Below, piece by piece: positions 673-14,370 of a stretch of DNA of 64,000 nt. The translations under genes and the position numbers were made by a program. Position 1 is the stretch's first letter, and each line of letters starts with the position of its first letter. The stretch lies in the UHGV virus genome UHGV-0212524. One strand, given 5' to 3'. The DNA comes from a virus. The notes under the pieces were generated by a model, which made no database searches, had not been told where the DNA came from, and saw only the letters and a program-made list of their open reading frames with translations.

Positions 673-1133
673 ATTGCTTCGAATCTAAAGAAATTGTTGA
701 GTTGTTTAAACAGCGTGAGAAAACCACTTTCCGTGACTTGTACGATTCCGATTACCGTCCTCTGTTTGCGGTATTGCTGAAACTGGATAAAGAACCCGAA
801 ATTGCATTAGCAGAAGTTCAACATCACCACATCAGTTTCGTATTAACTGAAAACAAGGAACGTTGGGTAGATGACATACTGGGTCGTATTGCGCTTTTGG
901 AAACACCACATCGTTGGGAAGTGGTTATTCAGAAATCGCTGTTCCCACGGGAAGATATTTTCAACAATTATCGTCCGAAACAGTATTACAACCACGACGG
1001 GTCGCCAAAACGTGCTTTCCTGGCACCGCAACACTTCGTAACCTACGTAACGTTGCGTTATAAAGACACCGTGGTGCCGTTTGACACCTACCTGGAAATG
1101 CGTGAGATAATTTTAGGGAAGAGTCCGTCATGA
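669..1133 (+). CDS. hypothetical protein
   Basis: ATG at 669 overlaps the upstream stop (ATGA) with GGGGA RBS; ORF track frame extends to 627. Confidence 0.5.
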   Translation: MNCFESKEIVELFKQREKTTFRDLYDSDYRPLFAVLLKLDKEPEIALAEVQHHHISFVLTENKERWVDDILGRIALLETPHRWEVVIQKSLFPREDIFNNYRPKQYYNHDGSPKRAFLAPQHFVTYVTLRYKDTVVPFDTYLEMREIILGKSPS

Positions 1134-1612
1134 TTCAATTTTCTGTTGGCGCAGAAAGACTGGCGTCGTTTAAAGAACGTGCTCAGTCTGCAATCAAAAA
1201 CGGTTACATTGAGAAAGGTGTTCGTGATACCTGTAAACTAATCAACGACCATCCGCACCTGGCGACAATGTGGAGCTGTGAAGGTCACGGTATGTATTCT
1301 AAGTCACCTGGAAATCTGCATATCGTTTTTGCAACAGACGCTATTGGAAGTCAGATTCCAATGCAGGTTATGACCGAACTTGCAAAATCAGATTTACCGA
1401 ATTTCTGGAATCTTAGTTTGTGTCGTCTTTATATACCAGACGCATACACGGATTTGGTATATCTTGAACCTGACTATGGATTAAATACCGATGACACGTC
1501 TTACTGGTCTTGGAAAATCGGATACATGTGCTTGATTAATCGGCCTGTATTAATTGAAGCACGTCAAGCTCTTTACAAAGCATTTCACACAGTATTAGTT
1601 GAGAATAAATAA
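1130..1612 (+). CDS. hypothetical protein
   Basis: 160-aa ORF; ATGA start/stop overlap with upstream gene. Confidence 0.55.
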   Translation: MIQFSVGAERLASFKERAQSAIKNGYIEKGVRDTCKLINDHPHLATMWSCEGHGMYSKSPGNLHIVFATDAIGSQIPMQVMTELAKSDLPNFWNLSLCRLYIPDAYTDLVYLEPDYGLNTDDTSYWSWKIGYMCLINRPVLIEARQALYKAFHTVLVENK

Positions 1613-2304
1613 TGGCTACCAAACAAAAGAAACCTCGTAACAAAAAGTATAACCCGAAAGCGGCTGCTAACCGTACTGCGCACACCATTGCTGAAAATGC
1701 GCTAAACCGTATTACTTTCGTCGGTAGCTCTATTCGTCCTATTGGTCCGTACGCAGGTCGTGGTTTCCAGTTCACAACGTCACCGCGTATGCGCATGGCA
1801 GCGACTGATATGTTAATCGGTGGTTTGTTTGACGAACCACGTAACTGGAAACTCTGGGTTGCGCATCTGTACGAAACAGATAATGGTGTACAAGCAGAAA
1901 CCGTCGTGGCCACGCTTGACGACTACACGTTAAGTGACTTCTGTCAGCACGGCGACAAAATCATCAAGTCGCTACGTGAGACAGAAGAAAACTACTTCGG
2001 CTATGCTTTCGTTGCTGCGCCTAATGAACGCTATGATTTCGACCAGGGAGAAGAACGCTTACTGGAAAACTTCATGCATTCTGGACTATTAGACAAATCC
2101 TTACACTTACCTGAAGAGGAACTGATGGTTTCGCGTAAGGATATGGTAACGTTGCTGTTAGCCGACCGTGGTCGTTTTGATATCACCGAGCCACATGTAC
2201 GTAAAGTACAGAAACTCGTGGATAAAGTAGACGAAACTGACCTGGACACTAATGAAGTCGCAACACGTATTCAAAGTGTAGTAAACCAGATTGAGGATTA
2301 CTAA
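1612..2304 (+). CDS. hypothetical protein with basic N-terminus
   Basis: 230-aa ORF; start coupled to upstream stop; N-terminal KQKKPRNKKYNPK. Confidence 0.55.
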   Translation: MATKQKKPRNKKYNPKAAANRTAHTIAENALNRITFVGSSIRPIGPYAGRGFQFTTSPRMRMAATDMLIGGLFDEPRNWKLWVAHLYETDNGVQAETVVATLDDYTLSDFCQHGDKIIKSLRETEENYFGYAFVAAPNERYDFDQGEERLLENFMHSGLLDKSLHLPEEELMVSRKDMVTLLLADRGRFDITEPHVRKVQKLVDKVDETDLDTNEVATRIQSVVNQIEDY

Positions 2305-2306
2305 AC

Positions 2307-2837
2307 GTGATAGCACGACTTGTGGGTTGGTTTAAGCAATGTCGTGCAAAGGCGGTCGAATGGCCGCCTATTACGCATGACGAGAAAGTGGCTCTTTTTT
2401 TGAGATATAACAAAGACTTGAAGAGATTAGGTGGATTAATGCGCTTAACGGAACGTCAGGTTTTTGCTAAGATTTCGAGCAGCGAGTTGCGTAAAGAAGT
2501 AATTCCACACCTATCCTTTTTAGGGCAGGTTTATGCAATGACGACAGAGGAATTTTTATCAACCCAAGGTAGCGAACGGCCACATATTCGGTTTTCCGTC
2601 GTAGGTGAACCTGATACGGTAGGTGAAATCGATTTTAAGATGCTGTATCGCAGAATAAAAGATGATGGGTTTATACATGTTAAACGATTATCAGAAACTT
2701 CTGTGGTGATTTATCATCGCACTGATCAGGATTTGTTAGGGTGTGTTATAAGGCTAACAAATTTACGTAGTTTTTACGTTGATTTACTTACAGACTTTTA
2801 TCCGGAACCTTGGTGTTTTATAGATGAAAATAAATGA
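2307..2837 (+). CDS. hypothetical protein
   Basis: 176-aa ORF; apparent GTG start 3 nt after upstream stop. Confidence 0.45.
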   Translation: MIARLVGWFKQCRAKAVEWPPITHDEKVALFLRYNKDLKRLGGLMRLTERQVFAKISSSELRKEVIPHLSFLGQVYAMTTEEFLSTQGSERPHIRFSVVGEPDTVGEIDFKMLYRRIKDDGFIHVKRLSETSVVIYHRTDQDLLGCVIRLTNLRSFYVDLLTDFYPEPWCFIDENK

Positions 2838-3036
2838 CGGATATATCATTTCAGCAATCGTTTCAACTGCGTTGATTGTAGCGATGTTGATGTTCTACGT
2901 TAAGACGTCTGACGAATCACGTAGAGACTCCCTTTATCGTGAATGTATGTCAGGCACTACTGTAGATAATCCACGCTACGCTGAATTAGTAATGGCGTGT
3001 ACGGAATACGCTAATCGAATGGGAGGAGGGAAATGA
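2824..3036 (+). CDS. small membrane protein
   Basis: 70 aa; single N-terminal hydrophobic helix; two spaced Cys; paralogous pattern with next ORF. Confidence 0.45.
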   Translation: MKINDGYIISAIVSTALIVAMLMFYVKTSDESRRDSLYRECMSGTTVDNPRYAELVMACTEYANRMGGGK

Positions 3037-3230
3037 AAATTTGGTTGCCGATTCTAGTTTTTATCGTTATTGCAGGGGCACTCGCAAGTGCTGAGTTAGA
3101 TAGCCGTACTTTAGAAACGAAACGTGAATTGTACCAGGACTGTATAAAGGATTATACACCGGGTACAGAGCTTCATGCACAAGCTGTAAAAAGTTGTGCG
3201 TTGATGGCTGAATCGCAGACTCGCTCCTAA
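3033..3230 (+). CDS. small secreted/membrane protein (paralog of 2824..3036)
   Basis: 65 aa; N-terminal signal-like hydrophobic segment; ATGA overlap with upstream gene. Confidence 0.45.
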   Translation: MKIWLPILVFIVIAGALASAELDSRTLETKRELYQDCIKDYTPGTELHAQAVKSCALMAESQTRS

Positions 3231-3604
3231 TGCGTATCTGGACGCTACAACTCGCTAAGTGGCGGTTAGCTAAGCAGAAAGGATTTCACGCGGTGGATAT
3301 CACCGTGAAGTCAGGTCGAAAGGAACTCGCCCCCGACTGGGATTTCCTAATGGCGTATAAATCTTCTGTCAAGGACGCTGCCGCTGAACGTGAGTACACG
3401 ATAAAGTATTTGTACAAACTCGAACGACTGTTAGATACTGATGCCGAAGTTTTAGTGTCGTTACTCAGACACGATGACTTGGTTTTGATGTGTTATTGTC
3501 CCGCAGGTAAGTTTTGTCATCGACACTTACTGGCGAACAAACTTCAAGAAGTGGGAATGATGTTTGGTATCGACGTTGTGTTGTGTGGAGAATTAACCGA
3601 ATAA
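3230..3604 (+). CDS. hypothetical protein with Cys/His cluster
   Basis: 124 aa; CYCPAGKFCHRH near C-terminus suggests metal binding; terminator follows. Confidence 0.5.
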   Translation: MRIWTLQLAKWRLAKQKGFHAVDITVKSGRKELAPDWDFLMAYKSSVKDAAAEREYTIKYLYKLERLLDTDAEVLVSLLRHDDLVLMCYCPAGKFCHRHLLANKLQEVGMMFGIDVVLCGELTE

Positions 3605-3670
3605 AAAATTCTATCGAAATCTTCCGGAAAAATCACTAATCATTCTTGATTTTTAACTACAGAATAGTCT

Positions 3671-3714
3671 CCTACCGCCCGATTCTATGGGCGGTAGGTG
3701 TTTTATTTTTTTTT
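3671..3714 (+). terminator. rho-independent terminator
   Basis: CCTACCGCCC..GGGCGGTAGG hairpin followed by a 14-nt T-rich run. Confidence 0.7.
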
Positions 3715-3730
3715 GATCTCGGAGGGTTAA

Positions 3731-4294
3731 GTGGCCACACCATACGTACCTGATTTGAGTCTGACCTCAGCAGAGCTAGTGGTCGCTTTAATCAATCACG
3801 ATAATGGGTTACAGCTTACGCTAAACGAAATACGTATTAGCGGGACCGTAACAAACTCATCTCCAACAACTTCGCGTCGTAACACCATTACCGAAATCAG
3901 TAAAATCAGAAAACCAGATGGTGCGTCTGTTGTGGTTTATTACGACAGACTCGACGCAGATGAAGTATTAACGTATGAACCCATTCTGATTTCGTTAGAC
4001 GGTACTGAAGACAACGTTCGTGACATTCTTAGTGTTGTAAATGAATTCTGCGGAACGAACTTACAACCCGAGGATTTACGTGCTTCAGATATCACTTTAG
4101 GTAACGATCCCATTTCCGTTAACGTTGCCGACGATTCTCCTGCGTGGATGAACGCGTTTATGGTGACGTTGTTTGATACAACCGAACGGGCATTAGCAAA
4201 CGAAGAAGATGCAATCTTCTGTATTGGTGACAATGCCGTTCTTACATTCGAGGTTACAGATGGCGACAGCACTGAAGAAGACGAGACTCCATGA
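3731..4294 (+). CDS. hypothetical protein, PDLSLTS paralog family (upstream flank of adhesin module)
   Basis: 187 aa; N-terminus ...PDLSLTSAELVVALINHD... and YYDRL / CGTNLQPEDL segments paralogous to 13858..14370. Confidence 0.6.
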   Translation: MATPYVPDLSLTSAELVVALINHDNGLQLTLNEIRISGTVTNSSPTTSRRNTITEISKIRKPDGASVVVYYDRLDADEVLTYEPILISLDGTEDNVRDILSVVNEFCGTNLQPEDLRASDITLGNDPISVNVADDSPAWMNAFMVTLFDTTERALANEEDAIFCIGDNAVLTFEVTDGDSTEEDETP

Positions 4295-4721
4295 GCTCGA
4301 AAGCTACGCAGGCACACCGCAGGGCGGGGTACTGCTGTATAGCAAAGACAATAAAGAATATAAAATTGATGTTGATAAGTTAGCCCCGGTTGCGACAGTC
4401 ACCACGGTTAACGGTTCGAATAATGCCGCCACGTTGGATTTCAATACCAGCACTGACATTATTCTGGTGTTAAACGATCCCACTACTACGGTGACGTTCG
4501 CAGCCCTTACTAACGTTGCGGAAAATACCCGTTTCGAAGTAATGCTAACGTTTAAGCAGGGAACAGGGGCGAATAAAGTAACCTGGCCTGAAAACGTTAA
4601 GTGGCCTCACGGTGCAAAACCGGTTTTATCCTACACGGCAAATGCGGAAGACACTCTGTCGCTTTATACCCTTGACGGGGGTGCCACTTGGAAAGGTTCT
4701 CTTCTTGCAGCGGGTTACTAA
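4260..4721 (+). CDS. short fibre-like protein sharing N-terminal anchor motif with the long tail fiber
   Basis: ATG at 4260 with GAGG RBS; N-terminal MATALKKTRLHELESYAGTPQGGVLLYSKDNKEYKI matches N-terminus of 7806..12272. Confidence 0.55.
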   Translation: MATALKKTRLHELESYAGTPQGGVLLYSKDNKEYKIDVDKLAPVATVTTVNGSNNAATLDFNTSTDIILVLNDPTTTVTFAALTNVAENTRFEVMLTFKQGTGANKVTWPENVKWPHGAKPVLSYTANAEDTLSLYTLDGGATWKGSLLAAGY

Positions 4722-7700
4722 ATGAGAAAACATTTTCAGCGTCACGCGATTAGCTACGCGTTATCGTTAGCTTACGGTCACCAATCCTTCGTTACCCGGA
4801 ATACGGGAACGACTAACGACGCACATATCGATCATTACATTCAAAACGAAGAAGGTGTTCTGTCGAATAACCGTCATTTCATCGCTGATACCATGGCGGA
4901 ATACCAACCGAACGGTGACGCAACGACCGAGGGTCAGTCGTTACACATTATCGGTTATTGCCACATGTATATCGCAACAAAAGACGAAAGATGGTTAGAT
5001 GCTGCGAAACACGCCTGGGATGCGTACAACACGTACTTCTACGCCGGACAGCCTATTCCGACAACACCCCAGCGTCGGATTTGTAACTGGTTAGTAAACG
5101 GGAAAGAACCGGTATTAGCACACTATCCTATTCACCCTACGGAACCTACCAACGGCGGGTATAAATGTGTTCCTGTAAGGTTTACAAATGGCCAATGTAA
5201 GATACCGCACGGTGCACCTTTCTGGGGAGAGTATTTGGATATCTGTACGTTTGCATATCGTGGCCACCCTGCCTGGGCCGCGATTAACGCAGATGTACAG
5301 ATTATCAAGGAAGACAAAGAAGGGTCGATTAATTGGGAAGACGTTTTAACTCACGTTATTACTAATCCTGATAAGCCTTACGAAAGCACAGCTTGGGTCG
5401 ATTGGCCAACACTGCTAAATAATACTACAGGTTACACCCCGCTTTGGGGCGGCTCTGCAACAAAAGCTCCTAAACACGACGTTGACTGGATAATTGCCTG
5501 GACGGGTAACAAAATCCAGGATGGTGAAATTATTGAGACGGGATTAGCAGACGCTGATAAAGGTACCGTACAGTTAAAAGACACACAGTTAAACGGTGTC
5601 TATTTAATTAACTACGCGGTAAAACTTCCTGTCGAACACGGCGGTTACGAATTTAAACGTAATGAGCCGTGGCACAACCGTCCGGTCCACACACCGTTCT
5701 TAGGGTCGAAAAACCAATACGGTAACGCCGCTGATGCTGAACTGTGGTTTATCGACGCCTGTTATTTGCTGTGGCGAATCACAGGTGAAGAGAAATACAA
5801 ACAAGCATTAGACTGTGCTTTCTACACCGCACATGAGTACACGTATATTGATGCGACAGATAAATTCTTCCGTCGTTCTACCGCTGCGGATACACCGTTT
5901 ACTGACGGTATTTCGTACGATTTCGATTACCCAGATACCGTAAGTGCCACCTACGGCCGTGATGAGAATGGAGACATTACCATCCACGTGCCTGAAGCGG
6001 CGCAGCACTTTATGGAGCAAAAAGCGGTTAGGTTCAGGATTAACAAAGACTCTAAACTACGTGTCACGTACGGTGGAGTTTGTAAGAATGGCGATCCTGT
6101 CTACTGTAAAGTGATGGTGAACATTAACCCTGCGAAAGCTGATACCGAGGAGGTAAACTGGTACGGTTTAACCTTACCTCGGTCTACGGTAAATACCGTT
6201 AAACAGTACGATGTTGACTTAGGCCAACTTTCCCGTATTACCACCCCAGAAGGGGGAGACTACCTGATAGCTGAAGCCCGTGCGTGTTCGGACTACGGTG
6301 GTTGTACGTGGGAAGAACGTTTTGAGGATAGCATTTACGATGGTCGCGCGGGTACCGTGGTAGAAGCGGAATTTCCTGATGACAGTGCCGGGTTTATTAT
6401 CGGGTTTTGGTTAACCGCTGAAGAGAAGGTAAAACCCGTTTCTATTGTTTACCGTGCAGACGCAGATTTTAACTTGCGTTTAGTCGACAGTGATAACTGG
6501 CTTTGGTGGTGGATGTTACCCAACACAAACAACGAATGGCGTCAGGTAACGTTGAATCCGGATGAAGCCACACTTTCCGGTTATCAGCCAGACCACACAG
6601 ACGCTGACCCTAAACCTTCAGCACCGAATTTCGATAAGGTGGATCAGGTCACGATTCTTCCTGACTCCACAGTTGACCATGCACACTTTGCTTACTATTG
6701 TGTTAACGATGTCCCACCGGTCTTTAATAAAGACGATGGTTATATTTTAACCTTCCGTATTGCCTTACGCGGTGGTGCAGAGTTTGATGCAAAGGTGGGT
6801 GATTGTACGATTGTAGATTACCGATTGGATTCGTTAGCGTACTGTCCGGGTACGATACCGTTCACGAACAGCTACTTAGAAGGTTCAGAACAGTTAGGTG
6901 CTTGGCACGGGATGCCTTATCCAGGTTATCAGTATCCGTTTATGTACAGTATCCACAAAGACGACCGGTATAAGTTGTGGTTAGATAACCAGATTCAATT
7001 CCTGCACGATTCGCAGTTGGCTTACCAACAGCAAATTGGGGAATTAGGACCTGGTTGCGCAGCTTATATCTGGAACCGTTGGGACAACTACAGCTACGGA
7101 GAAGCGGATACCTGGACGACGTTCCATTGGGGTGATGACCATCCTTGGGCAGGGTATCAGCCTCGCGCGTTTCATGCTGCGTGTCGGTGTTGGTACGAAC
7201 TGAAACTGCGAGGTAAAGACGTTCCCGAGGCGTTAACAACCTATATTGACAACTGGGTGAATTGGCTAGGTGGGTTTGTGGATCGGTTTAACGGCCACAC
7301 TCCTAACGAGTTCCCTACAGCACCGGATAAAGCTGTTTGGGTGGAAAACGACTTCACCGCACATATGTGTGGGTTGTGGTTAGCAGGGTGTTGCTGGGCA
7401 TTACTCGCCGGTGCAACGAATCCGAACTACGAAAAAGTGGTTAATGCGGCAATTAAGGAGTTAGGTGAAGGGTTTACGATTACCTCAATTCCGAATAAGC
7501 CGATTAATGGAGCGTGGTCTCCAGCCGCTCGAGAGTCTTCTGATAACGGAATGGCTTATGGGTTCTACACTGGAGAAGTGCTACGTGCGTTAGGTCTCTA
7601 CGTTACTTATAAAACCTACGGACCCAACGCTAATATTTATCGTGACTTAGCGATTACTGACCACAGTCAAGCGGTCTTAGACGTTACGTTAACGATAGAA

Positions 7701-7727
7701 GATGTTCCATTAAAACCGGAGCAATAA
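4722..7727 (+). CDS. large structural protein (1001 aa), function unknown
   Basis: ATG directly abuts upstream stop; Trp/Tyr-rich; sits between fibre-anchor gene and long tail fiber; terminator follows. Confidence 0.6.
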   Translation: MRKHFQRHAISYALSLAYGHQSFVTRNTGTTNDAHIDHYIQNEEGVLSNNRHFIADTMAEYQPNGDATTEGQSLHIIGYCHMYIATKDERWLDAAKHAWDAYNTYFYAGQPIPTTPQRRICNWLVNGKEPVLAHYPIHPTEPTNGGYKCVPVRFTNGQCKIPHGAPFWGEYLDICTFAYRGHPAWAAINADVQIIKEDKEGSINWEDVLTHVITNPDKPYESTAWVDWPTLLNNTTGYTPLWGGSATKAPKHDVDWIIAWTGNKIQDGEIIETGLADADKGTVQLKDTQLNGVYLINYAVKLPVEHGGYEFKRNEPWHNRPVHTPFLGSKNQYGNAADAELWFIDACYLLWRITGEEKYKQALDCAFYTAHEYTYIDATDKFFRRSTAADTPFTDGISYDFDYPDTVSATYGRDENGDITIHVPEAAQHFMEQKAVRFRINKDSKLRVTYGGVCKNGDPVYCKVMVNINPAKADTEEVNWYGLTLPRSTVNTVKQYDVDLGQLSRITTPEGGDYLIAEARACSDYGGCTWEERFEDSIYDGRAGTVVEAEFPDDSAGFIIGFWLTAEEKVKPVSIVYRADADFNLRLVDSDNWLWWWMLPNTNNEWRQVTLNPDEATLSGYQPDHTDADPKPSAPNFDKVDQVTILPDSTVDHAHFAYYCVNDVPPVFNKDDGYILTFRIALRGGAEFDAKVGDCTIVDYRLDSLAYCPGTIPFTNSYLEGSEQLGAWHGMPYPGYQYPFMYSIHKDDRYKLWLDNQIQFLHDSQLAYQQQIGELGPGCAAYIWNRWDNYSYGEADTWTTFHWGDDHPWAGYQPRAFHAACRCWYELKLRGKDVPEALTTYIDNWVNWLGGFVDRFNGHTPNEFPTAPDKAVWVENDFTAHMCGLWLAGCCWALLAGATNPNYEKVVNAAIKELGEGFTITSIPNKPINGAWSPAARESSDNGMAYGFYTGEVLRALGLYVTYKTYGPNANIYRDLAITDHSQAVLDVTLTIEDVPLKPEQ

Positions 7728-7748
7728 TAACCCGCTTATAAAAATGTT

Positions 7749-7780
7749 GGGGGAGGTGCTTTACCTCCCCCAGATCTTTT
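7749..7780 (+). terminator. hairpin terminator
   Basis: GGGGGAGGT..ACCTCCCCC hairpin after the 1001-aa gene; weak T tract. Confidence 0.55.
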
Positions 7781-7805
7781 AGCTCCCGATAGAGAATTAA
7801 ATATC

Positions 7806-10800
7806 ATGGCTAAAGCGGTAAAGAAAATTCGTTTACACGATTTACGTCCATACACCGGGGATATAGGTGAAGGTGTTTTACTTTTTTCCAAGGATGAGAA
7901 AGATTATAAGTTACCTGTCCGTGAGATCGTTGCAGATATTGACACCGTACGTAATGCGGTGTCTGATGCACAAACAGCAGCAACACAATCACAAGAAGCT
8001 GCAACTCAGGCTACACAAGCAAAGAATTTAGCAGAAACAGCAAAACAACAAACTGACACCGTTGCGGCTACAGTTGCTCAACAAGCGCAAACTGTAACCG
8101 AAAAAGCAACTGAAGTCGGTACAAAACACACTGAAGTGTTAGCCGCGAAAACGGCGGTAGATACCCAGGTTGTGTCCGTTAATGAGAAAGCGCAAGCGGT
8201 AGCGGCAAGCGAGGCCAACGTCACACAAGCGGTGACTACCGTTACGAAGAAAGCAGAAACTGTTGCCACACAAGCCGGTCAAGTCGAACAGTCGCTTACG
8301 GCAGTTAACGAAGCTGTCGCGTCGGTAGAGTCGTCAAAAGCCGCTGTAGAAGCTACAGCAACGCAAGTTACCACAGACAAAGAAACCGCAGAGAATGCGG
8401 CAACGCGTTCTGAGGCAGCGGCTAAGCGTGCAGAAGAAATCGCTGCAAAAGGTAACGTTGATGCAACAACGACCAGTAAAGGTATCGTTAGACTTAATAA
8501 TACCTTAAGCAGTGACTCTGTTACTGAAGCGGCTACGCCGTCAACGGTTAAGCAGTTAAATGAAGATTTGCAGTTAAAAGCAAACCGTCACAACCCAACT
8601 TTTACCGGTGTGGTAAAAGCACCAACACCTGCTTCGGATTCTAACGACACGAGCGTCTCAACGACCGCATGGGTACGGCAAGCGATTGCTGAATTAGTGG
8701 ACTCTTCACCCGAGACGTTAGATACGTTATCAGAAATTGCAGCTGCGTTAGGAAACGATCCTAACTTTGCGACAACGATGACGAACCAACTCGCGGGTAA
8801 ACAGCCGTTAAGTCCGTTACTGACAGCGATTGCCGCAGTCACCACCGCTGCAAACAAACTCCCTTACTTTACCGGTAGTAATCAGGTAGGGTTAGCGGAT
8901 TTCACCTCGACTGCGCGTGATTTGTTAGCGAAAGGGTCGACGGCAGATATCATTAACTTCCTGGGTTTGAAAACCACTGTTGATAAAGCTGCGGGTGCTA
9001 TGCAACGCAGTTCTAACGGTGCCGATATTCCAGATAAAGTCACCTTCGCGAAGAACATCGGGTTGTCAGCAGAGACGTATTTGAAGTTTAATGGGGAAAT
9101 GGCAGTAGATGCGGATATCAACACCTTCGGCCCAGTCGAAGCGTTTATGGGTGTCTGGTCTAAAGCCACGTCTACGAATGCAACAATTGCAAAGAACTTC
9201 CCGGAAGACGATGCAGTTGGTTACTTAGAGGTATTCAAAGCAGGTAACTACAGCGGAAGCCAACGTTTTACCATACGTAACGGTAACGTCTATACTCGTC
9301 GTTTAACAGGAACCTGGAACGGTACTAACGGCCCTTGGTCGCCCTGGAGAATGACAACTACCGCGAACCGTCCGCTCTCCACCACTATTGACCTTAACAC
9401 TTTAGGTGGTGTTGAACACATGGGTCAGTGGCGTAACTCCAGTTCTTCTCTTGCGACGTTCGATCGTCATTATCCCGAAGAAGGTGGTAATGCTCAAGGT
9501 GTATTAGAAGTAATGGAAGGTGGTCTCTACGGACGTATGCAACGTTACACCACTCGTCGTGGTACGATGTATGTCCGTGGGTTGACTGCGACTTGGGATG
9601 CGTCTAATCCACAGTGGGAAGATTGGATTCAAGTTGGGTATCAGGTAGACGGTGCCTACTATAAGGGTAGCTTTAATGACTTAACTAAACCTGGTCGTTT
9701 TAGTGTTACCGGTGAGGCTACTGACGGTCCGTTAACAGACTCTGCTGGCGCAACCTTGTTAGGTGTTTGCGAAGTTACCTTACGCTTAGACGGTTCAGGC
9801 GTTGAACAAAATTATACCACATACGGTACAGGCGCAACTACGAAAGGTCGCAAGTTCCAACGAATTCGTACAGGAAACGCCTGGAGCGAATGGCGAGAGA
9901 TTTTCACATCCTATTCACTCCCGTTGGCTTTAGGGATCGGTGGGGTTGCTGCCAAGGTCGATCCGTTAGACTGGCAAACCTTCGATTTCGTTCCTGGCCA
10001 GATGATAAGTACACCGTTGAATACCATGAAAAACATTCCTGCGGGAATGGATTGGGGTGTTATTGACGGTAACTTGGTCAGTATTCTCGTAGGGGCGTCA
10101 GAGGACACCGGTACTGGTCGGAGTATGTTGGTCTGGCGCGGTACAGTGTCTACTGCTAACTATCGCTTCTTTGCAGTACGTATCGCTGGCGAGAAGGGTA
10201 GCCGTACGATTACGCCACGACAGATGCCTGTGTTGAACGCAGCCCACACTTGGGCAGAGAAACAGACCTTTGCAAAAGGGTTAGCAGGTGAGTTAACCGG
10301 CAATGCTTCAACCGCCACTAAGCTCCAGACTGCGCGTAGAATTGGCGGGGTCGCTTTCGACGGCAGCGGCGACGTTAACCTCCCAGGTGTTAACCAACAA
10401 GGTAATCAAAACACCACAGGTAACGCCGCGACAGCCACTAAACTTCAAACCGCCAGAAATATTAACGGTGTGAAATTCGATGGCTCTGGAGACATCAATA
10501 TCAACACCTTGGTAGGTCGTGGACGGGTTACCGCTCTGACCGGGTCGAACAAGGGTACACCTGGTATCCAGATGTACGAAGTTTACAATAACGGTTATCC
10601 AACCGCCTATGGTAACTTGCTGCACTTAGGTGGTGCTAATGCGCTAGGCGAAGGTGAGTTGTTAATTGGTTGGTCGGGCACGAGTGGTGCACACGCACCC
10701 GTTTATATTCGTAGTCGACGCGATACGGCTGATGCGCCGTGGTCAGATTGGGCACAAGTTTATACTGCCCGTGACAGTATTCCTGGTGTAAATACCACCG

Positions 10801-12272
10801 GTAATCAGGATACTACTGGCAATGCCGCTACCGCGACGAAACTGAAAACCGCTCGCAGAATCGGCGGCGTTACCTTTGACGGTACTGGGGATATCAATTT
10901 ACCGGGGGTTAACCAGCAAGGCAACCAGAATACGACAGGTAATGCAGCGACCGCTACTAAGTTACAAACAGCACGTAAGATCGGCGGTGTTAACTTTGAC
11001 GGTTCGCAAGACATTAGTCTGCCCGGTGTAAACCAGACGGGTAATCAGTCGACTACCGGAAACGCAGCCACGGCAACAAAGTTGCAGACAGCGCGTACCA
11101 TTAACGGTATCGCATTTGACGGTACTAGAAATATATCGTTAGGGCCTGCCGATATAGGTTGTCCGGCTTCGCCCACTGGTTGGTTGGAGACTGGTAAAGA
11201 CGGCGGCGCAATAACTACAGCACAGCTAGTGACGTTATTGCAAAATAACGGCGCGTTTACCACAAAATCATGGGTTGCTCGCTGTGCATGGGCTTATGCT
11301 GCTAGTGCGTCCATACCGAACAGCGAGACGGGTTGTGGTGTTATTCCGTTAGCTGGGGCTGTTATAGAAGTGATTAGTAACAGCGCAAACAACTACACGA
11401 TCCGTATAACGACCCCCACAACGACGAGCGTCGGCGGCGCACTCACTAATGCGGAGTTTATCTACGTAAATAACGGTGATGCTTACTCACCAGGTTGGCG
11501 TCGCGCTTACAATACGAAAAACAAGCCAACTGCTGCGGATGTTGGGGCGTTGCCATTATCTGGCGGTCAATTGAATGGTGTGCTGACGCTGCAAAATGTG
11601 AGTCAGCCTCTCAAGACGCCGGGTGGCGGCATTCTGGCAAATGATGGAAATTTATACATCAATAAGTCAGGATTTGCAGGCTGGATTGATGCGCTGTTTT
11701 TGAAGAACAGCGGCGGTACTGTCACTGGCGATTTAACGGTTAACGGTAAACTGGTTACGAAGTATGCTGATTTCCGAATCGCTTACGGTAGCTGCGGTTT
11801 CATTTTACGTAATGATGGTGCCAATACCTATTTCTTAGTAACCGACTCCGGACAAGCCGCAACGGGTTCCTGGAACGGACTACGTCCGTTGTATTTTAAT
11901 AACTCTAACGGTCAAGTAACCTTTGGTCATAACATTTCTAGCAACGGTAACGGTTCGTTTAACGACGTACAGATTCGTTCTGACCGTCGCAACAAACGTA
12001 ATCTGGTGAAGCTGGATAAGGCTTTGGATCGGTTAGAAGCGCTTACCGGCTATCTGTACGAGGTTCAACATCCAGACGACGGTTGGAACACTTCGGTAGG
12101 TCTAATTGCTCAAGACGCATTAGAAGCGTTACCTGAACTTGTGTCTGAGGATGATGATGCCATTTCAGGCGAAAAACGTTTACGTCTAAACTACAATGGC
12201 GTTATTGCGCTGTTAGTAGAGGGTATGAAAGCGTTGCGTCAAGAGGTTAACGAAATTAAAGGAAGATCCTAA
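7806..12272 (+). CDS. long tail fiber protein with C-terminal intramolecular chaperone (peptidase S74-like) domain
   Basis: 1488 aa; A/T/Q-rich shaft; five tandem ~40-aa fibre repeats (TGNAATATKLQTAR.IGGV.FDGSGD); C-terminal SDRRNK (Ser-Lys dyad spacing) + LDKALDRLEAL. Confidence 0.85.
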   Translation: MAKAVKKIRLHDLRPYTGDIGEGVLLFSKDEKDYKLPVREIVADIDTVRNAVSDAQTAATQSQEAATQATQAKNLAETAKQQTDTVAATVAQQAQTVTEKATEVGTKHTEVLAAKTAVDTQVVSVNEKAQAVAASEANVTQAVTTVTKKAETVATQAGQVEQSLTAVNEAVASVESSKAAVEATATQVTTDKETAENAATRSEAAAKRAEEIAAKGNVDATTTSKGIVRLNNTLSSDSVTEAATPSTVKQLNEDLQLKANRHNPTFTGVVKAPTPASDSNDTSVSTTAWVRQAIAELVDSSPETLDTLSEIAAALGNDPNFATTMTNQLAGKQPLSPLLTAIAAVTTAANKLPYFTGSNQVGLADFTSTARDLLAKGSTADIINFLGLKTTVDKAAGAMQRSSNGADIPDKVTFAKNIGLSAETYLKFNGEMAVDADINTFGPVEAFMGVWSKATSTNATIAKNFPEDDAVGYLEVFKAGNYSGSQRFTIRNGNVYTRRLTGTWNGTNGPWSPWRMTTTANRPLSTTIDLNTLGGVEHMGQWRNSSSSLATFDRHYPEEGGNAQGVLEVMEGGLYGRMQRYTTRRGTMYVRGLTATWDASNPQWEDWIQVGYQVDGAYYKGSFNDLTKPGRFSVTGEATDGPLTDSAGATLLGVCEVTLRLDGSGVEQNYTTYGTGATTKGRKFQRIRTGNAWSEWREIFTSYSLPLALGIGGVAAKVDPLDWQTFDFVPGQMISTPLNTMKNIPAGMDWGVIDGNLVSILVGASEDTGTGRSMLVWRGTVSTANYRFFAVRIAGEKGSRTITPRQMPVLNAAHTWAEKQTFAKGLAGELTGNASTATKLQTARRIGGVAFDGSGDVNLPGVNQQGNQNTTGNAATATKLQTARNINGVKFDGSGDININTLVGRGRVTALTGSNKGTPGIQMYEVYNNGYPTAYGNLLHLGGANALGEGELLIGWSGTSGAHAPVYIRSRRDTADAPWSDWAQVYTARDSIPGVNTTGNQDTTGNAATATKLKTARRIGGVTFDGTGDINLPGVNQQGNQNTTGNAATATKLQTARKIGGVNFDGSQDISLPGVNQTGNQSTTGNAATATKLQTARTINGIAFDGTRNISLGPADIGCPASPTGWLETGKDGGAITTAQLVTLLQNNGAFTTKSWVARCAWAYAASASIPNSETGCGVIPLAGAVIEVISNSANNYTIRITTPTTTSVGGALTNAEFIYVNNGDAYSPGWRRAYNTKNKPTAADVGALPLSGGQLNGVLTLQNVSQPLKTPGGGILANDGNLYINKSGFAGWIDALFLKNSGGTVTGDLTVNGKLVTKYADFRIAYGSCGFILRNDGANTYFLVTDSGQAATGSWNGLRPLYFNNSNGQVTFGHNISSNGNGSFNDVQIRSDRRNKRNLVKLDKALDRLEALTGYLYEVQHPDDGWNTSVGLIAQDALEALPELVSEDDDAISGEKRLRLNYNGVIALLVEGMKALRQEVNEIKGRS
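10296..11160 (+). repeat. in-frame tandem coding repeats (phage tail-fibre repeat units) inside the long tail fiber gene
   Basis: Five degenerate ~120-nt units each encoding TGNAATATKL(Q/K)TAR.I(G/N)G(V/I).FDG(S/T)(G/Q/R)(D/N). Confidence 0.8.
11982..12269 (+). other. predicted autoproteolytic intramolecular chaperone domain (C-terminal 96 aa of tail fiber)
   Basis: Begins at D following Ser in IRS|DRRNK; Ser...Lys spacing of 5 as in S74 chaperone domains; location read from sequence. Confidence 0.6.
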
Positions 12273-13054
12273 TGGCAGTTGTCGGCGTAGGTGGTTGGAT
12301 TGGTTCTTCAGCAAAAGCTGAAACTGGTAACGATTGGATGTCTGGCGCGATGCGCACACTTGGTGTGCCGGTTCCAGGCTGGATGTCGCAATTGGCGGGA
12401 AAATCAAAAGAGGTTCAGTATTCGATCGGGGCTAATCACAATTACAATAAAGATACGCTTATTAACTATTTACGTTCTATAGGCTCTAATGCTGTCGTTG
12501 TGACCATTACAGGGGATTTAGTGTCTTATAGTAGCGGGGTTCCTTGTTTAGAATTCCCTAGCAATCTTCCAAATTCGTATATTACACTCATCATCAATCC
12601 TGGGGTTACAGTATACGGCAGAGGAGGCAACGGCGGTTCTAACTCACCAGGCGGTGCAGGTGGAACCGCAATACAGAACGGAATAGGAAACAGACTGCGT
12701 ATAACCAACCGTGGCGCTATTGCCGGAGGCGGTGGCGGCGGTGGCGGCGGTAACAGGGGTAGACTAATATTTGGTGGTGGCGGTGGTCGCCCATTCGGTG
12801 CTGGTGGGTCTTCCTCACATATGAGTTCCGGTGCAGCTGCTGGTACTATTTCCGCTCCTGGTAGAGGATCTGTTGGTGAGGGGTCTCTTAGTGCATATAC
12901 AGGCGGTTCGGGTGGTAATGTCGGTGCTGCTGGAGGAAGATGTAATACTCATGGTAACGGTACAGAATATAACGGCGGAGCCGCTGGTGCAGCCGTTAGA
13001 GGTAATGCGCCAAGATGGGACGCAGTAGGTGCAATATATGGTTCACGTGTTTAA
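12272..13054 (+). CDS. 38: tail fiber tip adhesin, gp38-like (T2/S16 type) with glycine-rich motifs
   Basis: 260 aa; N-terminus MAVVGVGGWIGSSAKAETGNDWMS and ITGDLVSYS as recalled for T2-type gp38; C-terminal half has multiple poly-Gly motifs. Confidence 0.7.
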   Translation: MAVVGVGGWIGSSAKAETGNDWMSGAMRTLGVPVPGWMSQLAGKSKEVQYSIGANHNYNKDTLINYLRSIGSNAVVVTITGDLVSYSSGVPCLEFPSNLPNSYITLIINPGVTVYGRGGNGGSNSPGGAGGTAIQNGIGNRLRITNRGAIAGGGGGGGGGNRGRLIFGGGGGRPFGAGGSSSHMSSGAAAGTISAPGRGSVGEGSLSAYTGGSGGNVGAAGGRCNTHGNGTEYNGGAAGAAVRGNAPRWDAVGAIYGSRV

Positions 13055-13114
13055 TTTGAAAAAGTATGGGGATACTCACTCCCCTCCTCACACCTTTCAA
13101 AAGGATAGGGTATA

Positions 13115-13618
13115 ATGGGGGTAGCATCTGGATGGGTCGGTTCTTCGGCCAAGAACGAAACGGGCGAACAATGGATGAGTGCTGCTGGTAGTAAATTAGG
13201 ATTGGGTAGACCTTTTATGATGAGTCAAATGGTGGGCCGATCTCTTGGCTGTAAAATCGCAACTGCTGCATATAGCGATTCAATGGCTAAATTTTGGGGT
13301 GCGGTGGGACCAAACTGGCCGTTAGCGCAGAAAAATAAAGGGACTATTCAGAATCCTGGTAGCTGCGGCGTAGGCACACTTATTGGTATCCAACTACTAT
13401 TGATCACATTGGCTGCTGATGCAAAACCAAGTTTAGCGGTCTATTTACAAGGTGGGAGAGCTTCTAACATCACCGTAAATCTAGGCGGCAACACTTGTAC
13501 GGTAGCCTATCAGCAGGTTATTAATGGTCAACATTATTACTGGACCTCTAACATTAGCACTGCTTTCCAAAACGTGATGAAATCAACCGGCACATTAAGA
13601 GATTTGAAGATTAGTTAA
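13115..13618 (+). CDS. gp38 N-domain paralog with unrelated, non-glycine-rich C-terminal domain
   Basis: 167 aa; N-terminus MGVASGWVGSSAKNETGEQWMSAAG parallels 12272..13054; C-terminal half lacks Gly-rich motifs. Confidence 0.6.
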   Translation: MGVASGWVGSSAKNETGEQWMSAAGSKLGLGRPFMMSQMVGRSLGCKIATAAYSDSMAKFWGAVGPNWPLAQKNKGTIQNPGSCGVGTLIGIQLLLITLAADAKPSLAVYLQGGRASNITVNLGGNTCTVAYQQVINGQHYYWTSNISTAFQNVMKSTGTLRDLKIS

Positions 13619-13639
13619 TAATTTTCAAGCGAATGTGCT

Positions 13640-13900
13640 TGAAAACGTAATCGGGGGGGGGGGTGAAATGTTTTTAGCCACCATTTTATGTCTCCCCAAG
13701 CATAGGAGGTAACCATACGTGGAACATTTCACGCCTGTTTGGGCGTTAACTTAAGTAAAAAACGATCACTCGAATCTGCTATAAAAAGCAATCGGGGGGT
13801 GGTGAAATGTTTATAGACAACTTTTTATGTCTCTCCAATCATAGGAGGTAACCATACGTGGAACAATTCACGCCTGATTTGTCGTTAACTTCACTTAACA
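13640..13900 (+). repeat. ~110-bp tandem duplication (two diverged copies) ahead of 13858..14370, with homopolymeric G tracts
   Basis: 13651..13757 and 13791..13897 align (ATCGGGGGG..GTGAAATGTTT..CATAGGAGGTAACCATACGTGGAAC..); first copy has G11 run and a start remnant that terminates after 11 codons. Confidence 0.8.
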
Positions 13901-14370
13901 TGGTTATTTCACTGGTTAACCATGACCTCCAGCTCGACCTGCAAGAGAACGAGGTTGAAGTCAGCGACGTAAAGACCAGTAACGAAATGGATCGTGACAC
14001 CACTGCTGTTGTAAAGATAAAACGTCCTGGTAACAGAACGTTACAAATCTATTACAACCGTTTAACCGCAGAGCGGTGGTTAAACCAGCAACCTATTCTG
14101 GTAAAGGTTTCCGGTAATGGTTTTACCGCACACGATCTAATCGACGGAATTAACGCGGCTTGCGGTTGTAATTTACAACCCGACGATCTTACCGACGAAT
14201 CATTTACCGTAGGGAAAGACGCTGTAACGTTACAGGTTTCACCCAACTCGTTAGGTTATAAAGGCCAATTCTCCGTTCTGGTTTTCGGTAACGACGAAGA
14301 AGCCGCTGTAGTAAAAGACAACGATTTAATCGTTACCGCAGATAATCGCGTCTTAACCTTTGGTGGTTAA
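13858..14370 (+). CDS. hypothetical protein, PDLSLTS paralog family (downstream flank of adhesin module)
   Basis: 170 aa; GTG start with AGGAGG RBS; N-terminus and YYNRL / CGCNLQPDDL paralogous to 3731..4294. Confidence 0.6.
   Translation: MEQFTPDLSLTSLNMVISLVNHDLQLDLQENEVEVSDVKTSNEMDRDTTAVVKIKRPGNRTLQIYYNRLTAERWLNQQPILVKVSGNGFTAHDLIDGINAACGCNLQPDDLTDESFTVGKDAVTLQVSPNSLGYKGQFSVLVFGNDEEAAVVKDNDLIVTADNRVLTFGG

Follow-up and report, generated by a model that had tools for sequence, protein, structure and literature searches.

Background

Gp38 is a monomer which is joined to gp37 by its N-terminal domain after chaperone cleavage (PMC9569957; PMC12032242). In fibres of the S16 and RB49 type the gp38 to gp37 stoichiometry is 1:3. 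PMC9659904 was set aside as a precedent, since it deals with the unrelated T4-type gp38 chaperone. No account of two gp38 adhesins per fibre was found in the literature on tandem gp38, PEi20, LPML1, Gp38_N and the gp38 of jumbo and Stx phages, nor was an experimental paper found on the short Gp38_N subfamily (PHROG 1121), in which the word 'adhesin' comes from annotation. Other phages reach more than one receptor with one virion type or one population, through the invertible S-U/S'-U' fibre segments of Mu and P1, or through the branched LtfA/LtfB fibres of the T5-like phage DT57C.

Organization of the fibre and adhesin locus

The window analysed here is a 64-kb stretch of the approximately 225-kb genome of UHGV-0212524. 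Two Gp38_N genes were identified in tandem directly 3' of a tail-fibre gene, all on the + strand, and the observation of two tandem gp38-like tip proteins with a common docking domain was confirmed. ORF A (260 aa) and ORF B (167 aa) lay exactly where the original prediction had placed them. The features of the locus were as follows:

7806..12272, + strand: tail fibre gene, 1488 aa (ORF; many PHROG tail-fibre families match)
11709..11894, + strand: Gp34_trimer-like trimerisation domain, fibre residues 1302-1363 (Pfam PF21446, E=2e-16)
11943..11978, + strand: predicted mature fibre tip NGNGSFNDVQIR, fibre residues 1380-1391 (motif conservation, 6F45_A alignment)
11979..12269, + strand: C-terminal intramolecular chaperone of Peptidase_S74 type, fibre residues 1392-1488 (Pfam PF13884)
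12260..13113, + strand: facultative cassette of 854 bp, made up of the final four codons of the fibre, all of ORF A and a spacer of 60 nt (blastn against sister genomes)
12272..13054, + strand: ORF A, GRM-type gp38 adhesin, 260 aa (Pfam Gp38_N and GP38, 6F45_D)
13055..13114, + strand: A-B spacer (sequence, RNA fold)
13115..13618, + strand: ORF B, short gp38-like tip protein, 167 aa (Pfam Gp38_N, phrog_1121)
13622..13645, + strand: inverted repeat with a 9-bp stem, just 3' of the ORF B stop (sequence, RNA fold)

A T2/S16-type phage was rejected as the source of the genome, which was that of an SPN3US/Asesino-like jumbo phage of the Salmonella/E. coli type. The fibre gene was flanked by genes for an SPN3US-type tail-associated protein and a DUF7941 virion protein. 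The whole fibre/A/B module was missing from the SPN3US/Asesino relatives, with neither a Gp38_N gene nor a homologous fibre at the corresponding position in SPN3US and Asesino. In our preferred reading, given a probability of about 0.55, A and B would be two alternative monomeric adhesins competing for one conserved fibre tip, in a gp37/gp38-type module which an SPN3US-like jumbo myovirus would have gained by horizontal acquisition.

The tail fibre and its tip

Residues 1-1072 of the fibre (7806-11021) were conserved among sister phages; in this part the identity to the fibres of L007 and L010 was 93-96%. Distally the fibre was mosaic, and identity to the same two fibres fell to 29-54%. No near-DNA match to the fibre gene was found among sequenced phages. 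A single 1488-aa gene was present and not the gp34-gp35-gp36-gp37 set of a Straboviridae long tail fibre, the gp37-like portion being only the distal ~190 residues.

The Gp34_trimer domain aligned with solved fragments of T4 gp34 and Mu protein S. Peptidase_S74 (PF13884) was found in fibre residues 1392-1446 (E=1.6e-10), preceded by the conserved tip motif, and both the tip/chaperone junction and the fibre C-terminus aligned with their S16 gp37 counterparts in 6F45_A. Trimerisation of the fibre would be assisted by the S74 chaperone at its C-terminus, which is expected to cut itself off afterwards at ...NDVQIR|SDRRNK (R1391|S1392, predicted by homology) and to leave the fibre with its conserved tip bared; NGNGSFNDVQIR is the putative docking site for Gp38_N. 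The tip motif was kept in every fibre preceding a Gp38_N gene, namely those of the sister phages, Stx phage P13374, CMS-2020a, PEi20 and L059, and the form GNG[SN]FNDV[QY]IR|SD was common to fibres preceding a GRM-type gp38, a short-type gp38 or one of each.

The 64-kb window held one tip motif for two Gp38_N genes. No further fibre bearing this tip was found in the window, and when the fibre end was used as a scan pattern, each related full-length jumbo contig gave one locus. These counts bear on the possibility that A and B cap different fibres, one of which would be encoded beyond the window with a compatible tip. Large myoviruses often bear several fibre types, the window covers less than a third of the genome, and gp38 of Krischvirus lies about 55 kb away from gp37, so adjacency of the two genes is not obligatory. 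Such an arrangement is nevertheless very unlikely in view of the single tip motif, the single fibre-end locus per contig, the position of B directly 3' of this same fibre in sister genomes, and the lack of any Gp38_N gene or homologous fibre at this position in SPN3US and Asesino.

ORF A, a GRM-type gp38

The T2/S16-type gp38 architecture proposed for ORF A was borne out. Gp38_N covered residues 1-42 (Pfam PF21721, E=1.5e-15; docking domain at 12272-12397) and GP38 covered residues 47-260 (PF05268, E=3.1e-69), with the beta-helix and the polyglycine sandwich (GRM/HVS) domain at 12410-13051. Residues 7-258 aligned with the solved S16 gp38 6F45_D (E=3.3e-50), in which alignment the glycine-rich motifs (G-runs) were conserved, and matches were also obtained to PHROG 2056 'tail fiber protein; host specificity' (E=3e-93) and to PP01 gp38 (9V85, E=2.8e-38). 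Compared with gp38 of FL18, an OmpA-dependent phage, ORF A showed 70% identity over the whole protein and about 88% in its receptor-binding half (residues 143-260). The hypervariable loops of ORF A thus most resemble those of a phage that depends on OmpA, which makes OmpA its likely receptor.

The start codon of ORF A overlapped the fibre stop (TAATG), and ORF A is predicted to be translationally coupled to the fibre gene. Its dN/dS was 0.13-0.26 in the C-terminal receptor-binding region and 0.17-0.56 in the docking domain, which is short and had few substitutions.

ORF B, a short Gp38_N tip protein

In ORF B, Gp38_N was identified in residues 1-40 (Pfam, E=3.8e-20; docking domain at 13115-13234), and the Pfam search gave no GP38 (PF05268) match. 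It matched phrog_1121 'tail fiber adhesin' over its full length (residues 1-165, E=7.7e-46), and the match to 6F45_D was confined to residues 1-44. The C-terminal 125 residues (13241-13615) were predicted as a beta-sandwich in the AF2 model with pLDDT about 90, for which fold no solved or characterised homologue was found. With no GGG runs and a glycine fraction of 0.13, the C-terminal half indeed lacked the glycine-rich motifs, as had been predicted. Given the absence of a PF05268 match and of GGG runs, and the beta-sandwich, ORF B lies outside the GP38 C-terminal family, and the docking domain alone is common. The full-length profile match and the location directly downstream of an S74-ended fibre place ORF B among the short Gp38_N tip proteins, and B-type genes occupied the same gene position in P13374, CMS-2020a and the sister jumbo phages. 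A cryo-EM preprint on phi24B was rejected as a source for the receptor of B; the lateral fibre and the tip proteins proposed there are not the same proteins, which makes the preprint uninformative on this point.

B might instead be a small cap or assembly factor which protects or matures the cleaved tip, leaving A as the sole true adhesin. The annotation 'distal long tail fiber assembly catalyst' is frequent among B-type proteins, and the lack of a characterised homologue for the C-terminal fold would agree with this; that label, however, goes back to T4 gp38, which is not a related protein, and the fibre carries its own intramolecular chaperone. In the sisters and the Stx phages, B is the sole candidate for a fibre which otherwise ends without a receptor-binding domain. 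The C-termini of alleles B1 and B2 were divergent (62% identity) and the docking domain was conserved, which is the pattern of a receptor-binding domain, and a purely auxiliary role for B appears highly improbable.

Docking domains, spacer and expression signals

The original prediction had noticed an N-terminal similarity of ~25 residues between the two proteins. The similarity was real and far beyond chance, with Gp38_N in both and a BLASTP E=2e-8 between A and B, but the length had been underestimated and was actually about 42-45 residues. In the docking domain 22/38 residues were identical (58%) and nothing convincing aligned beyond it, B continuing into its beta-sandwich, so the C-terminal halves are unrelated as claimed. 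A recent local tandem duplication was rejected, since the 5' ends were only 55% identical in nucleotides with a longest common run of 8 nt. The docking domain of B shared 93% identity with its counterpart in a phage-plasmid gene, compared with 58% for the domain of A.

A Shine-Dalgarno-like AAGGA was present in the A-B spacer. No significant RNA structure was detected there (fold z-score 0.33), no terminator-like site was called on its + strand, the single site (13068-13084) lying on the - strand, and the one promoter-like match (13087-13116) was not above shuffles. As the spacer has no significant RNA structure, A and B are likely to be co-transcribed. The inverted repeat after ORF B (RNA fold -9.8 kcal/mol, z = -2.0), which was not called a terminator by the consensus scan because it has no T-run, is a possible end of the transcription unit. 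No recombinase family was matched among the proteins scanned around the locus, and both adhesin genes were co-oriented with the fibre, each with its own ribosome-binding site, which is not the layout of the invertible Mu G or P1 C segments.

Distribution in related genomes

Ten related genomes were compared, a small sample consisting of uncultured assemblies. B was present and intact in all ten, and A in six, one of which (L014) had a 53-aa internal deletion in the gene, so A can decay. These counts make B the resident tip, with A as a facultative cassette. The second ORF, on which doubt had been cast, was thus the constant gene and the GRM-type ORF A the facultative one. The four B-only genomes (L007, L008, L009 and L015) each had B directly 3' of the fibre, and in blastn against the first three, homology ended at 12259 (87-89%) and resumed at 13114/13115 (97-98%).

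In the six tandem genomes the fibre-end, A and B alleles were reassorted, and the pair was found on two fibre-end types merely 29% identical. Neither an A-only genome nor a B pseudogene was seen among the ten. Both genes were under purifying selection (dN/dS about 0.07-0.26). That B is a decaying remnant was rejected, since it was intact throughout, with a dN/dS of 0.04-0.29 and a Shine-Dalgarno sequence in every related genome. Every B allele of the tandem genomes had a near-identical counterpart in a B-only genome (99.4% between the window and L007), so the purifying signal of B could stem from genomes in which it is the sole adhesin, and A could be very recent.

Outside this group, the tandem layout was found in about 1% of the sequenced phages carrying Gp38_N. 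It recurred on unrelated backbones, namely Kanagawavirus PEi20/KLB31, the FelixO1-like record LPML1 and the phage-plasmid-sized contig L059. In two CMS-2020a phage-plasmids, GRM-type and short-type genes alternated at one locus.

It could be argued that only one cap works and that the tandem state is a recombination intermediate, with A as a newly inserted cassette in transit and little used or unused, or else with A having taken over and B a leftover not yet lost. The extra 854-bp segment is clean against the B-only sisters, its flanks being 87-98% identical; B is nearly the same as its B-only copy, and A is missing in 4/10 genomes and internally deleted in L014. A transient state is hard to reconcile, however, with six genomes, several allele combinations and two fibre-end types. 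The absence of A-only genomes and B pseudogenes and the low dN/dS of both genes also speak against it, as do the independent recurrence of the layout in PEi20/KLB31, LPML1 and L059 and the state of A itself, which is intact, predicted to be coupled to the fibre and close to a functional OmpA-binding gp38. We therefore regard a single working cap as unlikely.

Two proposed adhesins for one fibre tip

In the preferred reading of two competing adhesins, one gp38 monomer would dock on the bared tip through the ~42-residue Gp38_N. The phage would make two caps, A with the polyglycine-sandwich receptor-binding domain of T-even phages and B with a different 125-residue beta-sandwich. Since there would be room for one cap per fibre, each fibre should bear A or B, and the virions, being mosaics, could attach through one or the other of two receptors, so that the host range would be broader or hedged. 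The original prediction was partly supported: its core, two adhesins which could cap one fibre tip, was backed by the single tip motif with its two Gp38_N genes, the conservation of that motif before either gp38 type, the B-only sisters and Stx phages, the allele swap in CMS-2020a and the purifying selection, and the roles it implied for the two genes were reversed.

That A and B sit together on one tip, stacked or as a heterocomplex, is hardly credible. Their tandem co-occurrence would suit it, and nothing else does; A-type and B-type proteins are each the sole tip gene in other phages, the alleles reassort independently, and one monomer fills the trimer tip in the S16-type complex (6F45).

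A wider reading of the two-adhesin model is put forward tentatively, as possible and not as probable. The mosaic virions may each carry OmpA-type caps and caps for another receptor, mixed at random, the B beta-sandwich may be a widespread class of receptor-binding domain, which would include O104:H4 outbreak-type Stx2 phages and SSU5-like phage-plasmids, and Gp38_N with the GNGxFNDVxIR tip may serve as a universal plug and socket across at least five phage groups.

Implications

If both caps are used, dual receptor specificity would be obtained very simply, with no inversion, branching fibre or extra fibre set, the only extra need being a second small gene with a 40-residue plug. Host-range broadening by insertion of an approximately 850-bp cassette would then be explained, and an engineering recipe is suggested, in which a second Gp38_N-tagged binder is placed after any S74-ended fibre. 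Should a single cap be used, the locus still gives a clear picture of adhesin-cassette movement between T-even, FelixO1-like, phage-plasmid, lambdoid and jumbo phages. The short B-type domain is an unstudied putative receptor binder, and its receptor is worth identifying because this domain is the only fibre tip of medically relevant Stx2 phages, P13374 and phi191 among them.

Comparison with known systems

Among the closest systems is the S16/T2/T6/RB49-type gp37-gp38 tip (6F45; PF21721 and PF05268), in which, as predicted for the window, a self-cleaving S74 chaperone ends the fibre and a separate gene encodes a monomeric adhesin with a ~40-residue N-terminal docking domain. ORF A is likewise a full three-domain gp38 with glycine-rich motifs and hypervariable loops. 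Unlike that type, the phage is an SPN3US-like jumbo phage and not a member of Straboviridae, no gp34-gp36 set was seen, and there are two adhesin genes, of which B is entirely without the polyglycine domain.

The full-length identity of ORF B was 58-62% to the short Gp38_N proteins of P13374 (ORF66 'tail fibre adhesin'), phi191 and CMS-2020a (SCU-175), and about 31% to the SSU5 homologue. In all of these a fibre with the NGNGSFNDVQIR|SD tip and a chaperone precedes the gene, which, unlike in the window, is the sole tip gene.

The T4-like Kanagawavirus phages PEi20 and KLB31 also carry two adjacent Gp38_N genes, annotated gene 38, downstream of gp37. Their common part is the 45-aa docking domain alone (76% identity) and the C-termini are unrelated. 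Unlike the window, both copies are of the short type with no GRM-type partner, and the pair is known from annotation alone, no published analysis of it having been found. The tandem varies within the genus, Kosakonia phage 305 having one gene 38. 'Listeria phage' LPML1 (Ounavirinae, OK283618.1) has the identical order, with a fibre (Gp34_trimer and S74), a GRM-type gp38 of 255 aa and a short Gp38_N protein of 160 aa, which differs in standing on an unrelated 87-kb FelixO1-like backbone with the fibre and adhesin genes annotated hypothetical. Its GRM-type protein was 39% identical to ORF A over a 143-residue BLASTP alignment (residues 8-144), and its short protein was similar to ORF B in the docking domain only.

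The functional outcome proposed here is the same as that of Mu/P1 and DT57C, and the window fibre also has a domain in common with Mu protein S. Unlike in Mu/P1, no recombinase was matched at the locus and the two adhesin genes point the same way as the fibre gene; unlike in DT57C, there was no sign of a branching fibre protein, and two caps with one docking domain would serve a single tip, of a kind which takes one gp38 monomer in the S16-type complex. The choice of receptor would come here from the competition of two monomeric caps.

Tandem adhesin genes behind one fibre

Two gp38-like adhesin genes, ORF A and ORF B, lay downstream of a single fibre gene in the window. With a probability of roughly 55%, their products are alternative monomeric caps for one conserved fibre tip, which would give fibres and virions with two receptor specificities.

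Genes around the fibre tip
4722-7727, + strand: tail-associated protein, 1001 aa
7806-12272, + strand: fibre, 1488 aa
12272-13054, + strand: ORF A, 260 aa, Pfam Gp38_N and GP38
between ORF A and ORF B, + strand: A-B spacer, 60 nt
13115-13618, + strand: ORF B, 167 aa, Pfam Gp38_N, PHROG 1121
13858-14370, + strand: DUF7941 virion protein

The original prediction, a tandem gp38-like pair with a common N-terminus, was therefore correct: ORF A and ORF B matched each other in BLASTP well beyond chance (E=2e-8), both carried the docking domain Gp38_N, and 22 of 38 residues were identical in this domain, to which true likeness was limited. The shared segment was real, but it covered about 42-45 residues instead of the predicted 25 or so. 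In ORF A, Pfam placed Gp38_N at residues 1-42 (E=1.5e-15) and GP38 at residues 47-260 (E=3.1e-69). The comparison with S16 gp38 that had been proposed was carried out, and the solved S16 adhesin (6F45_D) aligned with ORF A end to end (E=3.3e-50); PP01 gp38 (9V85), an adhesin already studied by means of GFP fusions, also aligned. In ORF B, Gp38_N at residues 1-40 (E=3.8e-20) was the only family found in the Pfam scan, and PHROG 1121 'tail fiber adhesin' covered the full length (E=7.7e-46).

The last 190 residues of the fibre were gp37-like. After a Gp34_trimer-type domain (residues 1302-1363) came a short stretch with NGNGSFNDVQIR at its end, and the Peptidase_S74 intramolecular chaperone began at S1392 (SDRRNKRN...); S16 gp37 (6F45_A) aligned with this region at its own tip/chaperone junction. 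S16, T2 and RB49-type fibres have a self-cleaving chaperone, and one gp38 monomer joins the trimer tip via its N-terminal domain (PMC9569957; PMC12032242). By homology to these fibres, chaperone cleavage and gp38 docking would also occur in the window's fibre. It is highly improbable that A and B, neighbours in the genome, act together as a heterocomplex.

Resident and facultative adhesins in sister genomes

Exact-protein and pattern searches yielded another nine loci from this uncultured lineage, all flanked by genes in the same order. Their sources were assemblies of Salmonella, Logan runs, IMG/VR contigs (151-225 kb) and, for L015, a 5.9-kb fragment. Genomes of ~225 kb in the lineage include IMGVR_UViG_3300029126_000001, 3300045988_078609 and 3300045988_113438. 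ORF B was intact in all ten genomes. Four loci (L007, L008, L009 and L015) had B only, beginning 3-4 nt past the fibre stop, and six (the window, L010, L013, L014, L016 and L017) had A then B. Relative to L007, the window contained a clean extra segment of 854 bp (12260-13113) made up of the final four codons of the fibre gene, the whole of ORF A and its spacer, with flanks 87% and 97.7% identical. ORF B is thus the tip gene resident in every genome of the set, and ORF A is a facultative cassette.

An intermediate of recombination, with only one cap really used, would be an unlikely explanation of the pair. In L014 (IMGVR_UViG_3300045988_078609) the A gene had lost 53 aa in frame, a deletion that took out the glycine-rich, hypervariable centre of the protein, next to an intact ORF B. 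Recombination mediated by glycine-rich motifs (GRMs) may have caused this deletion, or the accessory adhesin may be decaying. Glycine-rich repeats flanked it, and this ORF A homologue (4340-4978) started with GTG. The 5' ends of ORF A and ORF B were only 55% identical in nucleotides and had no stretch in common longer than 8 nt, so the pair is not prone to recombine itself away; recent duplication as its origin was ruled out by the same identity.

Among the lineage loci, two A alleles tracked the type of fibre end, and two B alleles (62% identical) assorted independently. The first 1072 fibre residues were 93-96% identical across the lineage and divergent beyond. A motif of ~35 residues, GNxxTTGNAATATKLQTARxIxGVxFDGxxD, was repeated about five times at fibre residues ~817-1110 (window ~10250-11130). 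The copies appeared as internal self-similar matches in blastn; they are a probable recombination substrate because they lie where sister fibres begin diverging.

Three fibre-end types, X1, X2 and X3, were distinguished. X1 (the window, L014 and L016) and X3 (the B-only genomes) had in common the tip NGNGSFNDVQIR/SDRRNK (slash, cleavage site), which was also present in Stx phage P13374 and CMS-2020a strain SCU-175, both encoding only short gp38. The X2 end (L010, L013 and L017) had the tip GGNGNFNDVYIR/SDARLK and only 29% identity to X1 across the last ~240 residues; it resembled the ends of L059, an IMG/VR contig, and of CMS-2020a strain SCU-107, which has GRM-type gp38 only. The ~10 residues preceding the cleavage site were conserved in every case compared, as would be expected of a common socket for Gp38_N. 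Direct evidence that a GRM-type and a short-type gene can substitute for one another at a single locus came from the two CMS-2020a phage-plasmids. That the two caps serve different fibres is improbable.

Other genes adjoining this module varied as well. L008 (ERR10789688) had no counterpart of the tail-associated protein of 1001 aa, glycosyl-hydrolase-like, that is encoded just before the fibre (4722-7727 in the window), and a 186-aa DUF7941 protein occupied this slot, so the tail gene adjoining the fibre is also variable in the lineage. The DUF7941 protein downstream of ORF B had 644 aa in L013 (5592-7526) but 170 aa in the window and in the remaining sisters; the C-terminal end was common to both forms, and its gene is another variable structural gene adjoining the adhesins.

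Selection and expression signals

dN/dS estimates by Nei-Gojobori
B, C-terminal domain: 0.07-0.12 where dS was measurable; 0.24-0.29 in two near-identical pairs with very few substitutions
B, docking domain: 0.04-0.29
A, C-terminal region: 0.13-0.26

Two-adhesin genomes were included in these comparisons (B, window versus L013, dN 0.109, dS 1.55). For each B allele of the tandem genomes a close twin existed among the B-only genomes, and some of the selection signal of B may therefore have been earned where B was the sole adhesin. It is rather improbable that B is a non-binding cap or an assembly factor.

The ATG of ORF A overlapped the fibre stop (TAATG) and was preceded by AAGGA, and AAGGAGG or AAGGA preceded ORF B in every genome. 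Neither significant RNA structure (z=0.33) nor a + strand terminator-like site was found in the A-B spacer, and a 9-bp hairpin followed ORF B (z=-2.0). In X2 genomes (L013, 4125-4215; L010, 5120-5215) a perfect GC-rich palindrome (CAGTGAGGGGTTCCCCTCACTG) separated the fibre stop from the TTG start of A2, thus the coupling of fibre and A differs from the TAATG overlap of the window. An intergenic 11-base G homopolymer was observed after ORF B (13653-13663) with a shorter G run near 13794, and in L014 an expansion of the G run at the start of ORF B introduced one extra glycine; these runs could be slippage-prone tracts.

Origin of the module and candidate receptors

Identity of the tail-associated protein was 71-76% to gp124 of SPN3US and gp141 of the Erwinia phage Asesino, which places the phage among the SPN3US-like jumbo phages; these two were the nearest isolates, and the lineage is without a close sequenced one. 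In SPN3US and Asesino small hypothetical genes, and no fibre, followed that tail-associated gene, and no Gp38_N gene was found in Seoulvirus records. The fibre gene had no near-DNA match (megablast) among 50,697 sequenced phages, and the receptor-binding part of ORF A was 77-89% identical in nucleotides to gp38 genes of Krischvirus, Mosigvirus and Tequatrovirus. The fibre-tip module is therefore a mosaic insert gained by horizontal transfer. Lineage contigs occurred inside Salmonella assemblies and sequencing runs. One example is L009 (GCA_044191855.1, Salmonella enterica serovar Chester), an assembly in which one contig has a 99% copy of ORF B. Such occurrences suggest that cultures carry the phage or are contaminated with it, and they point to Salmonella as the host.

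Within residues 143-260, where most of the hypervariable loops lie, ORF A had about 88% identity to the gp38 of FL18, a phage for which OmpA dependence has been shown, so OmpA is a reasonable guess for its receptor. Homologues of ORF B were present in Stx phages, SSU5-like plasmids and Kanagawavirus. Structural work on phi24B as a clue to the ORF B receptor was rejected, since the proteins are different.

Comparison with other two-adhesin layouts

A 44-residue Gp38_N query matched 848 sequenced phage records at only 857 places, therefore about 1% of the records have two copies. Kanagawavirus PEi20 (L003, 4980-6149) and KLB31 (L005, 5046-6136) carried two tandem 'gene 38' ORFs of the short type after gp37. 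In direct comparison the PEi20 pair shared only the 45-residue docking domain (76% identity), and for KLB31 a presence check confirmed two docking domains. Within this genus, Kosakonia phage 305 had a single gp38 copy; one versus two copies in Kanagawavirus parallels the presence/absence pattern of the jumbo lineage. LPML1 (OK283618.1; L081, 892-6274) had the window's layout, an S74-chaperone fibre, a 255-aa GRM-type gp38 and a 160-aa short Gp38_N protein, but on an unrelated Ounavirinae (FelixO1-like) backbone. Its fibre was of enterobacterial type though the record is labelled Listeria phage, a host label that looks doubtful. In L059 (IMGVR_UViG_3300045988_158219, 106.8 kb; 802-7816) the fibre was followed by a short gp38 (185 aa), a 202-aa ORF with no Pfam match and a GRM-type gp38 (274 aa), so the adhesin order was opposite to the window's, with an extra gene in between.

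No paper describing or testing two gp38 adhesins on one fibre was found in a literature search. Phage biologists are unlikely to be startled because multi-receptor phages are common, and a two-cap tip would offer a compact, directly testable mechanism with engineering value. Although the parts are known from gp37/gp38 fibre tips, no description exists of the two-cap arrangement, of the way it recurs in four or more unrelated backbones, or of the B-type domain itself.
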